Virus record (IMG/VR): IMGVR_UViG_3300027769_000061
Location: 1-39,655 of that record
DNA length: 39,655 nucleotides
Origin: a virus
Lineage: Duplodnaviria; Caudoviricetes
Direction: 5' to 3' (one strand)
Shown: positions 22,618 through 25,365 of the stretch, piece by piece
Position numbering within the stretch: position 1 is the first letter of the stretch
Layout: each line of letters opens with the position of its first letter
Position numbers and translations under genes: made by a program
The notes under the pieces: generated by a model
What the model was told of the DNA's origin: nothing
Database searches by the model: none
The model's input: the letters and a program-made list of their open reading frames with translations, nothing else

Positions 22618-22859
22618 TAGATTTTCTTTACAGTTGATTTTGGTGCTTTGCTTGCGCGATCTAGTACTTCATTCCATCCAGGATTTCTTGCGATGAGTTT
22701 ATCTTTCCATTCACCGACTTCTCCGGGAGTAGCACATCCCTGTGACCAATCACGGGACCAAGGTTTATTATTTTCATACCAATCCATAATATCATGGACA
22801 CTCATTTCAATAACTTTTTTTTCACCCGTTTCCGGATTATAAACTGGATATATTGCCAT
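22617..22859 (-). CDS. Conserved cyanophage hypothetical protein upstream of phoH
   Basis: MAIYPVYNPETGEKK...W...GEVGEWKDKL...PGWNEVL. Its start and stop overlap those of its neighbours. Confidence 0.75.
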   Translation of the reverse strand: MAIYPVYNPETGEKKVIEMSVHDIMDWYENNKPWSRDWSQGCATPGEVGEWKDKLIARNPGWNEVLDRASKAPKSTVKKI

Positions 22860-23410
22860 TAAACCAATCTCCATCCTTTATGTTGTTGTTGTCTTCCTCT
22901 ACGCAAATCATATATGCAAGAGGGTTTTAAATTGTGTAGTTCACAAAATTCATTAATATTGTCACCATTATATATTTCCCCCTTTGGAGACATCAATTTA
23001 AACGATTTAACATGTAAGGGAGGTTTTATTCCCATATCTTTATTTCGTTTAGAAAGACGATTTTTCGCATCTTCACTCATACCTGGACCCAATACTCTAC
23101 CCTTGCAGGAATTTCGTATCTTTTCTTTACTTTTTTCAGTATGTCCAGTAAAGATAGGAGGAGCATCTCCACCATTTGATTTATTGCGAAGAATTCCAGT
23201 TCCCAAATCTTTTCTACCAAAAACATTAATCATATAAATTTCATGTTTATATGCAGCATCTTCTGTAAGATTATTTTTAAGAATGAGTATTCTGTCTTTT
23301 GGTGGAGGAGAAAAGAAATCATGTTTTTGATATGCTCTTCTACCTTTACCTTTACCAATATACCATGGAGTTTTATCTTCTCGCAAATAAGCGTAAGTAT
23401 AATACTCCAT
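22859..23410 (-). CDS. Free-standing GIY-YIG-like homing endonuclease
   Basis: YYTYAY-x7-YIGKG..RR...E..MI...GR...ILRN...GGD catalytic-type region, HTEKSKEKIR (NUMOD3-like) and a C-terminal HKGW motif. Confidence 0.8.
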   Translation of the reverse strand: MEYYTYAYLREDKTPWYIGKGKGRRAYQKHDFFSPPPKDRILILKNNLTEDAAYKHEIYMINVFGRKDLGTGILRNKSNGGDAPPIFTGHTEKSKEKIRNSCKGRVLGPGMSEDAKNRLSKRNKDMGIKPPLHVKSFKLMSPKGEIYNGDNINEFCELHNLKPSCIYDLRRGRQQQHKGWRLV

Positions 23411-24190: not shown

Positions 24191-24354
24191 TTCTTTCCAA
24201 ATCCTTTTGATGTTTTTGCTTCAAGTTCTGCAAGTTCTTGTTTTACAACTCGCAATTGTTGTTTCATTTCTATCAGTTGCTCATCAGAATAAAGATGGTC
24301 TTGTTTACTCAATCTTTCAAGCAACTTTACCAGTTCTTTTGCTCTATTCGTCAT
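24187..24354 (-). CDS. Small coiled-coil hypothetical protein (55 aa)
   Basis: Not in the track: MTNRAKELVKLLERLSKQDHLYSDEQLIEMKQQLRVVKQELAELEAKTSKGFGKK*. ATGA overlap with thyX. Confidence 0.75.
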   Translation of the reverse strand: MTNRAKELVKLLERLSKQDHLYSDEQLIEMKQQLRVVKQELAELEAKTSKGFGKK

Positions 24355-24517
24355 CTAAATCACTATCCTCAAAAATTTCGTCATAATCTAAAACTGCCCG
24401 TTTTCTCATCGGTTCCATAGGAGTATAAGCAGAAACATCAGAATAGATTTCTGCCTTTAATGAATCCACAAGCAATTCTATATTACGAACGATAAGTTTT
24501 AATTTTTCTTTGTCCAT
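24344..24517 (-). CDS. Small cyanophage hypothetical protein
   Basis: MDKEKLKLIVRNIELLVDSLKAEIYSD...DYDEIFEDSD; lies just downstream of a promoter. Confidence 0.75.
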   Translation of the reverse strand: MDKEKLKLIVRNIELLVDSLKAEIYSDVSAYTPMEPMRKRAVLDYDEIFEDSDLDDE

Positions 24518-24538
24518 ATCTTGTAATACTCTCATCTC

Positions 24539-24567
24539 ATTTTACATAAAAAAAGGGAGGATGTCAA
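24539..24567 (-). promoter_or_regulatory. Sigma70-type promoter embedded in a terminator
   Basis: TTGACA-N17-TAAAAT. Confidence 0.75.
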
Positions 24568-24574
24568 TCCTCCC
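24548..24574 (-). terminator. Rho-independent terminator
   Basis: GGGAGGAT-TGAC-ATCCTCCC-TTTTTTT (8-bp stem, 7 U). Confidence 0.9.
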
Positions 24575-24578
24575 AGTT

Positions 24579-24680
24579 TCAGGCAACTTGTGGTTTTTTT
24601 GCCATATTCAGTTGTGCTACTTGAAGGAGTTTTTCCTTCTTTGCTTTTGTTTTGAGATAGCGAACGAAATAAGTGTTCAT
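24579..24680 (-). CDS. 33-aa basic peptide, translationally coupled to the DUF4278-like gene
   Basis: MNTYFVRYLKTKAKKEKLLQVAQLNMAKKPQVA*. AAGGAGG RBS and ATGA overlap; ends just before the terminator. Confidence 0.7.
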   Translation of the reverse strand: MNTYFVRYLKTKAKKEKLLQVAQLNMAKKPQVA

Positions 24681-24814
24681 TTGTGCCCCTCCTTTACATA
24701 CTTAATACCACGATAGGTTTCGTTGTATTGTTGGGGTTGCTGCATCATTTGCTGTTGGTATTCAATGCGCTTTTGGGTATCATATTCAACACCACGATAT
24801 ACGACTTTGGACAT
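24677..24814 (-). CDS. DUF4278-like small protein (45 aa)
   Basis: MSKVVYRGVEYDTQKRIEYQQQMMQQPQQYNETYRGIKYVKEGHK*, with two YRG[VI]xY motifs and an AAAGGAG RBS. Confidence 0.85.
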   Translation of the reverse strand: MSKVVYRGVEYDTQKRIEYQQQMMQQPQQYNETYRGIKYVKEGHK

Positions 24815-24843
24815 TAGGTTTGCTCCTTTACTTTTTAGGTATT

Positions 24844-24890
24844 GGCGCGTTGCTTCCCAAATGGTACTTCCGTCGCTTATGCGATCAACG
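24844..24890 (-). ncRNA. Glutamine-I riboswitch (glnA RNA motif)
   Basis: CGTTG-A-TCGC-ATAA-GCGA-CGGAAGTA-CC-ATTT-GG-GAAG-CAACG-CGCC. It shows P1 CGUUG/CAACG, a P2 hairpin, the GGAAGUA/GAAG E-loop region and a short P3, and lies 5' of a DUF4278-like gene. Confidence 0.85.
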
Positions 24891-24898
24891 TACTGTAT

Positions 24899-24934
24899 AT
24901 ATTAGCATAAAATCAAAAAAGTAGCAACTGATAC
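24899..24934 (-). promoter_or_regulatory. Extended -10 promoter (TGcTAATAT) with an NtcA-type GTA-N8-TAC box over the -35 region
   Basis: GTAGCAACTGATAC at 24921-24934; TG-C-TAATAT at 24907-24899, 8 nt upstream of the riboswitch. Confidence 0.55.
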
Positions 24935-25017
24935 CAAAATTGTATCATACTGCTACCTTTTTGAAAAACTATCGCGTGAGAAATTTTTGGGGGAAATTTT
25001 TTGCCCCCTCAGGGAAA

Positions 25018-25365
25018 TCACTTTCGCTTTTTAGTTTTGGACGGTGAAGATTTATATCCCCAAAGTCTTGGATTAACTCTACCGTATCCCCAATCAATTT
25101 TTTTCACCGCGTTAGGTCCAAATTTATCGTAATACAAATCAAAGATGCGAACTCTTGTTCCTCTACAAAGATCCATGCATCTATTTCCATCAACTTCATA
25201 AACTACAATATAAGCATCAGTAGGAAAAGACGGATCCTTTATAGTTTCATTTGTAGCATTTTCTAGTAAAATTTCACATCCATATTTGGGAGGAATATCT
25301 TTTTTTTCTTCTGGTGTCCATTCCATTTTGAGTGTTTCCTCTTTTACACTACTAACTGTGCTCAC
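25018..25365 (-). CDS. Conserved cyanophage hypothetical protein
   Basis: CEILLENA...PTDAYIVVY...DLCRG...IFDLYYDKFG...IDWGYGRVNPRLWGY. Start uncertain (GTG 25365 or ATG 25326). Confidence 0.75.
   Translation of the reverse strand: MSTVSSVKEETLKMEWTPEEKKDIPPKYGCEILLENATNETIKDPSFPTDAYIVVYEVDGNRCMDLCRGTRVRIFDLYYDKFGPNAVKKIDWGYGRVNPRLWGYKSSPSKTKKRK

Follow-up and report, generated by a model that had tools for sequence, protein, structure and literature searches.

Among the closest described systems is Synechocystis gifB, the gene of IF17 (Klaehn 2018, PMC6212724). In the parts of that source accessible to us, gifB has an NtcA site in its promoter, a type I glutamine aptamer whose G23-C60 linchpin adjoins a stretch pairing with the ribosome binding site (RBS), and a product with DUF4278, all of which have counterparts in the phage unit that we describe here, the RBS pairing as a weak prediction. 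Inhibition of glutamine synthetase (GS) by IF7 and IF17 is reported to depend on three Arg, and DUF4278 covers the N-terminal part of IF17, which is dispensable for this inhibition. The phage unit differs from gifB in the position of its NtcA site, centred at -7.5 in gifB and far upstream of that in the phage, and in its products, which are far shorter than the 17 kDa of IF17 and in whose profile matches (35 examined) no IF7-like C-terminal part carrying the three GS-inhibiting Arg was seen.

A second described system is the family of short DUF4278 ("IF17-like") genes of picocyanobacteria, for example PMM1846 of Prochlorococcus MED4 (PMC6212724, PMC6316151), in which both layers of control, NtcA and the glutamine switch, are ON in nitrogen excess. 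The function of these short proteins is left there as an open question, and the accessible text of the two papers does not show GS inhibition by them. The phage unit shares with these genes a GTA-N8-TAC box at the core promoter, a transcript that begins with a glutamine aptamer, YRG motifs and a basic helix. However, the aptamer is of type I in the phage and of type II in the host genes; the protein is split in the phage, with the YRG part first, whereas the host protein is one chain with the helix first; and the phage box lies about 10 nt further upstream than the host box and is doubled into a hairpin.

Parts of such a unit have been seen in phages. As a preliminary description of our locus had pointed out, glnA RNAs are in print for cyanophages. 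The phages reported are S-CREM1 and P-TIM68 (PMC9964418, Table 4, Table S7) and Melnitz, Mosig and AG-345-P14 (PMC9004378), and like the locus described here they are RF01739 matches in T4-like aquatic phages; the accessible portions of these reports state no link to an NtcA box or to DUF4278-like peptides. Predicted NtcA sites, 1-16 per genome, were described in marine cyanomyoviruses and read as activating many genes (Sullivan 2010, PMC3037559). These include intergenic GTA-N8-TAC sites like ours, and in the accessible part of that study they come with neither a conservation test nor a riboswitch link. The literature has predicted riboswitch action inside a lytic phage, and its accessible portions contain no test of it. 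Our search, mostly without subscription journals, found no published description of the combined phage unit or of a split protein, and the papers on DUF4278 that were examined do not place it in a phage. Each layer is known already from hosts, and the aptamer from phages; what is new is the split, reordered host protein.

The locus lies in a 39.7-kb virus record (39,655 nucleotides, 17% complete), all of which was analysed and is called the window below. Genes of T4 type in the window include those for the tail, the baseplate, single-strand binding, a helicase loader and a late regulator, and the unit has genes for thyX, phoH and glutaredoxin next to it. The cultured phage that best matches the region, at 77% over 99% of 701 bases, is the reservoir phage S-SRM01 of Synechococcus; it shows the gene order of the window, and its annotation lists both peptides as hypothetical genes. 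Together with RNA runs from lakes, gene content and this match point to a freshwater T4-like cyanophage as the source. All parts named in the preliminary description were found on the minus strand where it had placed them, as judged by sequence, ORFs, Rfam and folds (Table 1).

Table 1. Features of the unit, with positions in the window
Feature	Position	Strand	Basis or remark
Inverted repeat, A-run before and T-run after, holding both box-like sites	24912..24965	-	Fold -24.7 kcal/mol, z -7.4
Imperfect second site GTA-N9-TAC	24942..24956	-	Centre 21.5 bp upstream of main box
NtcA-type box GTA-N8-TAC	24921..24934	-	Centre about -36.5 from putative start
Extended -10 TG-n-TAATAT (24907-24899) and overlapping TATATA hexamer	24896..24907	-	Putative start near 24891
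Compact single glutamine-I (glnA) aptamer	24844..24892	-	RF01739, 45.6 bits against a cut-off of 35, E 5.8e-7
Predicted expression platform	24815..24848	-	Aptamer 3' end pairs weakly with RBS when ligand-free (fold)
RBS AGGAG	24827-24823	-	Sequence
45-aa YRG-x-YRG peptide, DUF4278-like, two YRGxxY motifs	24677..24814	-	ORF, profile matches
33-aa basic helical peptide	24579..24680	-	ORF joined to 45-aa ORF by ATGA overlap
Intrinsic terminator, stem 24574-24555 and T run	24548..24574	-	Fold, z -4.1
TTGACA-17-TAAAAT promoter of next gene	24567-24539	-	11/12 sigma-70 match

On balance we lean towards reading this unit as a phage copy of a host nitrogen-status cassette, in which a box, a glutamine-I aptamer and two coupled peptides forming a split DUF4278 mimic would be ON in nitrogen-replete cells. 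Related viral loci were collected with a pattern for the start of the 33-aa peptide (98 loci, a set thereby selected for the 4-base overlap), with a profile of the 45-aa peptide (at least 441 loci confirmed of 600 candidates, 80 of them used) and with a pattern for the compact aptamer (27 loci). A YRG peptide behind an aptamer end was collected from 194 loci, 126 of them distinct; in 105 of the 126 the first aptamer base and the 90 bases upstream could be placed, giving 90 distinct upstream regions. The unit is common in lake viromes, judging by the 441 or more confirmed loci, and S-SRM01 is a cultured carrier of both peptides. The layout is conserved in related phages: the box is exact in 89/90 distinct upstream regions (shuffles had a mean of 2.3 and a maximum of 9), a second ORF follows in 121/126 distinct loci, and a terminator-like structure is found in 67/92 distinct 3' ends. 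The unit probably works as a nitrogen-status switch.

The compact glnA aptamer was confirmed by an Rfam covariance search, in which it was the sole match in the window. It is built of helices P1 (5 bp), P2 (4 bp) and P3 (2 bp) with a linchpin pair G24870-C24847, and its non-helical and junction letters, the E-loop included, are those of the crystallised aptamer as printed in the accessible part of PMC5393176. In a set of 15 distinct single aptamers taken from viral contigs, pairing was seen in 98.8% of 165 cells, the G23-C60 linchpin (G pairing with the C after P1) was kept in 15/15, and two-sided changes were seen in 4/11 pairs, spread over P1, P2 and P3. The covariation score of this set was reached by 0/500 shuffles, a figure that is not a probability because the sequences are related. 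The 2-bp P3 counts against our reading, yet both of its pairs show two-sided changes. Identity as a glutamine-II aptamer was rejected, with no RF01704 match in the window or in 20 phage loci. It is very likely that the aptamer would bind glutamine.

Folding suggests how binding could be passed on to translation. Opening the region from RBS to start codon costs 4.4 kcal/mol in the free leader and 3.0 kcal/mol with P1 forced and the linchpin C freed, a modest gain of 1.4. Formation of P1 made opening of the RBS cheaper in 48/51 short leaders, with the opposite in 3/51. Forcing P1 takes away competing pairs by construction, so that the constraint favours an ON result. The predicted RBS release agrees with the ON model proposed for the gifB glutamine switch in the accessible literature, and glutamine binding would probably free the RBS and thus act as an ON switch. 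Single type I aptamers were also seen in other viral contigs with no nearby NtcA-type box or YRG peptide (L183, L187, L196, L197, L201 and L202), several of them with TAAATA before and a hairpin after.

Aptamer number varies among the relatives. In the 105 placeable loci we found 16 leaders with one aptamer, 85 with two and 4 unclassified, the window having the plain single form. Double leaders (for example L012, L022 and L064, in the range L004-L181, and L001 2200-2430) are interlocked with a shared P3: linchpin letters pair across the halves in 111/112 cases and within a half in 24/112, as counted in 56 distinct double leaders, with 4 of the 85 rows unparsed. Long inserts occupy one or both P2 loops in 34/105 loci and, where examined, hold an ORF of 50-70 codons with its start codon in the stem. 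The published phage glnA RNAs, at 95-99 nt, have lengths that suggest the double rather than the compact form; that listed for P-TIM68 (193968-194062) stops 28 nt short of a sequence (194090-194203) that matches the 45-aa peptide weakly (E 3). One relative, L111 (990-1610), agrees with the window (24500-25060) in promoter type, peptides and terminator but has a double aptamer, which argues that modules are exchanged among close relatives. The two are near-identical, differing mainly in the double aptamer, and offer a natural pair for asking what the double form adds.

A single GTA-N8-TAC was rejected as evidence by itself. The window holds 7 such sites against 5.6 expected, so a lone box is at chance level, and we counted only its conservation. 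By conservation, the NtcA-type box of the preliminary description stands out from chance. Apart from being exact in nearly all upstream regions, it is absent within 40 bases of all 68 other strong sigma-70-like sites in related loci; looser sigma-70-like sites have it in 6/138 cases, 5 of which are the cassette's own box on the other strand. This indicates that the box belongs to the unit. The genes upstream of the 90 regions differ (27, 26, 22 and 15 in four crude classes). The inner eight letters of the box vary with a bias like that of a protein site, with C at place 2 in 75/89, and the box of the window matches that of host locus L221, read on the + strand, in 13/14 letters. Binding of the box by host NtcA would be quite likely.

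The preliminary description had the box overlapping the -35 of an extended -10 promoter, and this arrangement is present, with a weak -35 (TTGCTA, 24927-24922, 17 nt before TG-n-TAATAT). A promoter scan of the window did not list the promoter of the unit, which was read from the sequence and from the conservation of TG-n in the clade. Distances from box to aptamer cluster at 24-25, 30-31, 44-49 and 55-56 nt in the 90 upstream regions, and in the 30-31 nt class the TG of the extended -10 is kept with n variable, and TATATA is found in 8/8 regions. Taking the base before the aptamer as the putative +1, the box centre falls at the table position in the window. Most regions have it near -50, whereas it is at -30.5 to -31.5 in 7 of them and near -62 in 5. 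In the 44-49 nt class (L012, L025, L031, L038) a 20-nt inverted repeat with covarying arms, centred on the -10 hexamer, sits between the TATATA/TAAATA hexamer and the aptamer, and its removal yields the 24-nt class.

What NtcA would do at this box is less certain. A box over the -35 does not by itself imply repression, since NtcA sites in that place are usually activating, according to the accessible text of Klaehn 2018 (PMC6212724). Repressing sites are given at -28.5 to -30.5 (also -7.5) and activating sites at -40.5 in the part of Bolay 2018 (PMC6316151) that was available; the centre in the window fits neither textbook position, which counts against our reading. Because that centre lies between the published repressing and activating positions, and because the box is an arm of a hairpin, repression can be put forward only with moderation: we somewhat favour the view that NtcA would repress under nitrogen shortage by covering -43 to -30. 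The opposite view, which we consider unlikely, is that NtcA activates, with transcription in nitrogen-starved cells and translation held back by the riboswitch until glutamine rebounds, or that NtcA fires a second start about 6 nt downstream, which would cut off the first strand of the aptamer. It draws on the weakness of the -35 and the usual activating place of a box that overlaps it, on a TAnnnT hexamer 23 nt after the box in 8/8 regions of the 30-31 nt class, on the location of the box upstream of an intact -35 in most relatives (centre about -50), and on the reading of phage NtcA boxes as activating in the accessible part of Sullivan 2010 (PMC3037559). However, TAnnnT is common in AT-rich DNA, transcription driven by starvation would oppose an ON glutamine switch, and the box centres of the host homologues (about -26.5) and of the 7 phage regions at about -30.5 to -31.5 are repressing positions.

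In the window the main box forms the 3' arm of the hairpin 24965-24912, the 5' arm being the GTA-N9-TAC site, and this use of the box as a hairpin arm also counts against the favoured reading. The hairpin may in addition end transcription from upstream genes. Moreover, TATATA, 5 bases before the aptamer, resembles a phage late motif and could serve the phage late polymerase. Taken further, these features would make the palindrome of the window's clade a mere terminator of the upstream genes, or a site for a phage factor, with the unit transcribed from a phage late promoter and glutamine as the sole input. The strong fold of the hairpin with its T run, the stem changes that are often G-U tolerant, and the TAAATA-like hexamers in the same slot in relatives would agree with this, NATAAATA being the published late motif. 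But the N9+N8 pair of sites occurs in only 13/90 distinct upstream regions, leaving 76/89 box-bearing regions without it, and among the 13 double-box variants the hairpin reaches -18 to -24 kcal/mol in 8 and only -3 to -13 in 5, so the motif in the DNA persists where the hairpin does not; its spacer stays at exactly 8 nt, and a host gene has a near-identical box. We therefore find the terminator and late-promoter account quite improbable and keep to a box read by NtcA. A separate GC-rich hairpin (24980-25015) stands right after the stop of the upstream gene and is kept with changes in relatives.

Turning to the products, the 45-aa ORF with two YRGxxY motifs and the coupled basic 33-aa ORF were found as described. 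Star comparisons with the window gave a dN/dS of 0.11 for the 45-aa peptide (91 sequences) and 0.13 for the 33-aa peptide (47 sequences, the first nine codons being partly fixed by the search pattern), and the 4-base ATGA overlap was present in 119 of the 126 distinct loci, part of which were selected for it. Both peptides are, on this sequence evidence, real genes under purifying selection. The preliminary description had called the 45-aa peptide DUF4278-like, which held in that it is related and failed in that it is not a formal member: it scores 20.7 bits (E 5.5e-4) against Pfam PF14105 (DUF4278), under the 25.3 cut-off, which one relative (L210) passes with 25.7 bits. The 45-aa peptide also matches phrog_5049 (E 2e-10) and has 187 homologues, and the clusters that neighbour it at 0.91-0.96 in the Atlas have a DUF4278 share of 16-60%. 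Twelve PDB matches of the 45-aa profile were dropped, at E 0.09 or worse. The longer 45-aa forms that were examined were set aside as mostly upstream start calls inside the RNA leader or read-throughs. For the 33-aa peptide, no family or structure was found in Pfam, PHROGs, NCBIfam, PDB sequences or the Atlas.

A close host copy of the 45-aa peptide was considered and rejected. Of 26 candidates in GTDB, 2 proved to be such loci; they lie on short contigs of a Bacteroidota and an archaeal MAG, which we read as probable binned phage DNA, and no match to the peptide was found on plasmids.

The Gln content of the 45-aa ORF (8/45 residues, in runs), together with the ATGA coupling, could also point to a leader peptide that senses charged tRNA-Gln and so controls the 33-aa ORF. 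This reading is very improbable and we have nearly rejected it: the Gln share in the family ranges from 0 to 27%, both YRG motifs are invariant in 34 sequences of the family, as expected of a working peptide, and two loci (L194 and L206) are without the 45-aa ORF. In these two, whose genomic position is unchanged, the box, the compact aptamer, the leader and the terminator are all present, but the sole product is a 27-aa helix; this points to the helix as the working part. Since the phages have split the short DUF4278 protein and some are helix-only, the helix is the part to test first.

The kinship of the second peptide was traced through proteins that resemble it. A profile of 30 second (33-aa-type) peptides retrieved 62 proteins among 1.84 billion, nearly all of 27-45 aa; two of the 35 examined, P0205 and P0218, have the helix and YRG motifs joined in one protein. 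P0205 scores above the DUF4278 cut-off. Related to it are 38 shorter proteins, about 59 aa long (the A4 family), with a basic helix followed by two YRG motifs; NCBI assigns some of these proteins to Prochlorococcaceae, Synechococcus and Cyanobium. The phage 33-aa and host A4 proteins have in common a basic helix ending in AQ-x-x-MAK. Comparison of the 33-aa family (A2) with the N-terminal helix of A4 by hhalign gave a probability of 95.9 (E 5e-9, 26 columns); this comparison was pairwise, and a hit of the same profile had led to A4. With the YRG part of A4 the match of the 45-aa family is weak (probability 13.6), which counts against our reading. The A4 layout, helix and YRG in one chain with the helix first, is not that of the phage, which has two ORFs in reverse order. 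One contig (P0079) carries an in-frame fusion of YRG and helix, which may be real or an error.

The control of the A4 genes completes the comparison. They were located in 50 metagenome loci, and the 20 scanned all had a glutamine-II switch; in the 36 distinct upstream regions, 17 had a GC content of at least 60%, and 15 of these have a box 20-21 nt before the aptamer. The host has the same two-layer unit of box and glutamine switch, as the accessible text of Klaehn 2018 (PMC6212724) described for Prochlorococcus. Since the 33-aa family matches the A4 helix and the A4 genes carry box and glutamine-II switch, the sequences indicate that the phage unit is a split, reordered copy of the host short-DUF4278 unit rather than of gifB. 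The preliminary proposal that the phage reproduces the two-layer logic of gifB thus stands as to anatomy, with conservation, covariation and codon selection behind it, and needs changing as to the closest host model, which is the short picocyanobacterial DUF4278 gene with its glutamine-II switch. In lower-GC loci of this host family (L236, L237, L239, L240, L241, L246) the P2 hairpin of the glutamine-II aptamer, some 70 bases ahead of the ORF, is itself formed by a perfect GTA-N8-TAC, so that one sequence could serve as both DNA site and RNA stem.

Under the favoured reading the two peptides would likely be made when the infected picocyanobacterium is nitrogen-replete, and jointly they would likely mimic the host short DUF4278 protein in split form. 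GS is a possible target. Tentatively, the basic helix could be the working part and bind an acidic host protein, most likely GS, thereby damping ammonium assimilation or competing with the host factor. More speculative still, and rather unlikely in full, is the idea of cyanophage-encoded GS regulators, in which a split DUF4278 copy, with the helix as inhibitor and the YRG peptide as stabiliser, answers to two host nitrogen signals and reroutes carbon and nitrogen only in nitrogen-replete cells. If true, a virus would here control the nitrogen assimilation of its host through a riboswitch, and the unexplained host DUF4278 family would gain a function.

It is also reasonably possible, though not the reading we lean to, that the regulation is as proposed and the peptides do not touch GS, acting on another host target or as decoys for a protease or partner of the host DUF4278 protein. 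The part of IF17 to which DUF4278 corresponds is stabilising and dispensable, and among the 62 profile matches of 33-aa-type peptides (35 examined) nothing like the inhibitory part of IF7/IF17 was seen. The 33-aa peptide contains a single Arg and 7 Lys, which counts against an action of the IF7/IF17 type, and an AlphaFold model of the host protein of about 59 aa shows one helix and an unpacked tail (pTM 0.36) with no packed fold. In addition, GS binding would not explain the third, hydrophobic peptide of many relatives. However, the control by box and switch is the same as that of the GS factors, and the peptides are basic, small and helix-prone like them. The third peptide is encoded by a short coupled ORF after the helix peptide in about 24/92 distinct 3' ends (for example L119, L121, L124-L129 and L132-L137), and in L118 a hydrophobic peptide replaces the helix peptide.

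The strong terminator that had been proposed to close the unit was found. Its loop and 3' arm carry the -35 of the next gene's promoter, and in 56/92 related 3' ends, too, the next gene has a near-consensus promoter whose -35 falls within the terminator hairpin. Part of the region 24300-25300 is present in 24 lake or freshwater RNA runs. In four mapped runs, from four lake metatranscriptome studies, RNA contigs cover 24590-24775, 24626-24859, 24590-24876 and 24576-24775; all lie inside 24576-24876, and none crosses the putative start or the terminator. Neighbouring genes also have RNA contigs in these runs. Uncovered parts are not evidence, and the libraries may contain DNA, so the contig limits are a weak hint of a separate transcript of the unit.

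Two other features of the window were seen. An ORF at 22859-23410, directly behind thyX, has weak GIY-YIG and NUMOD matches (E about 0.025) and is possibly a homing endonuclease. In the segment 26674-33319, the gene of a 1478-aa protein that matches methyltransferases and glucosyltransferases precedes two further genes of methyltransferase-like type.
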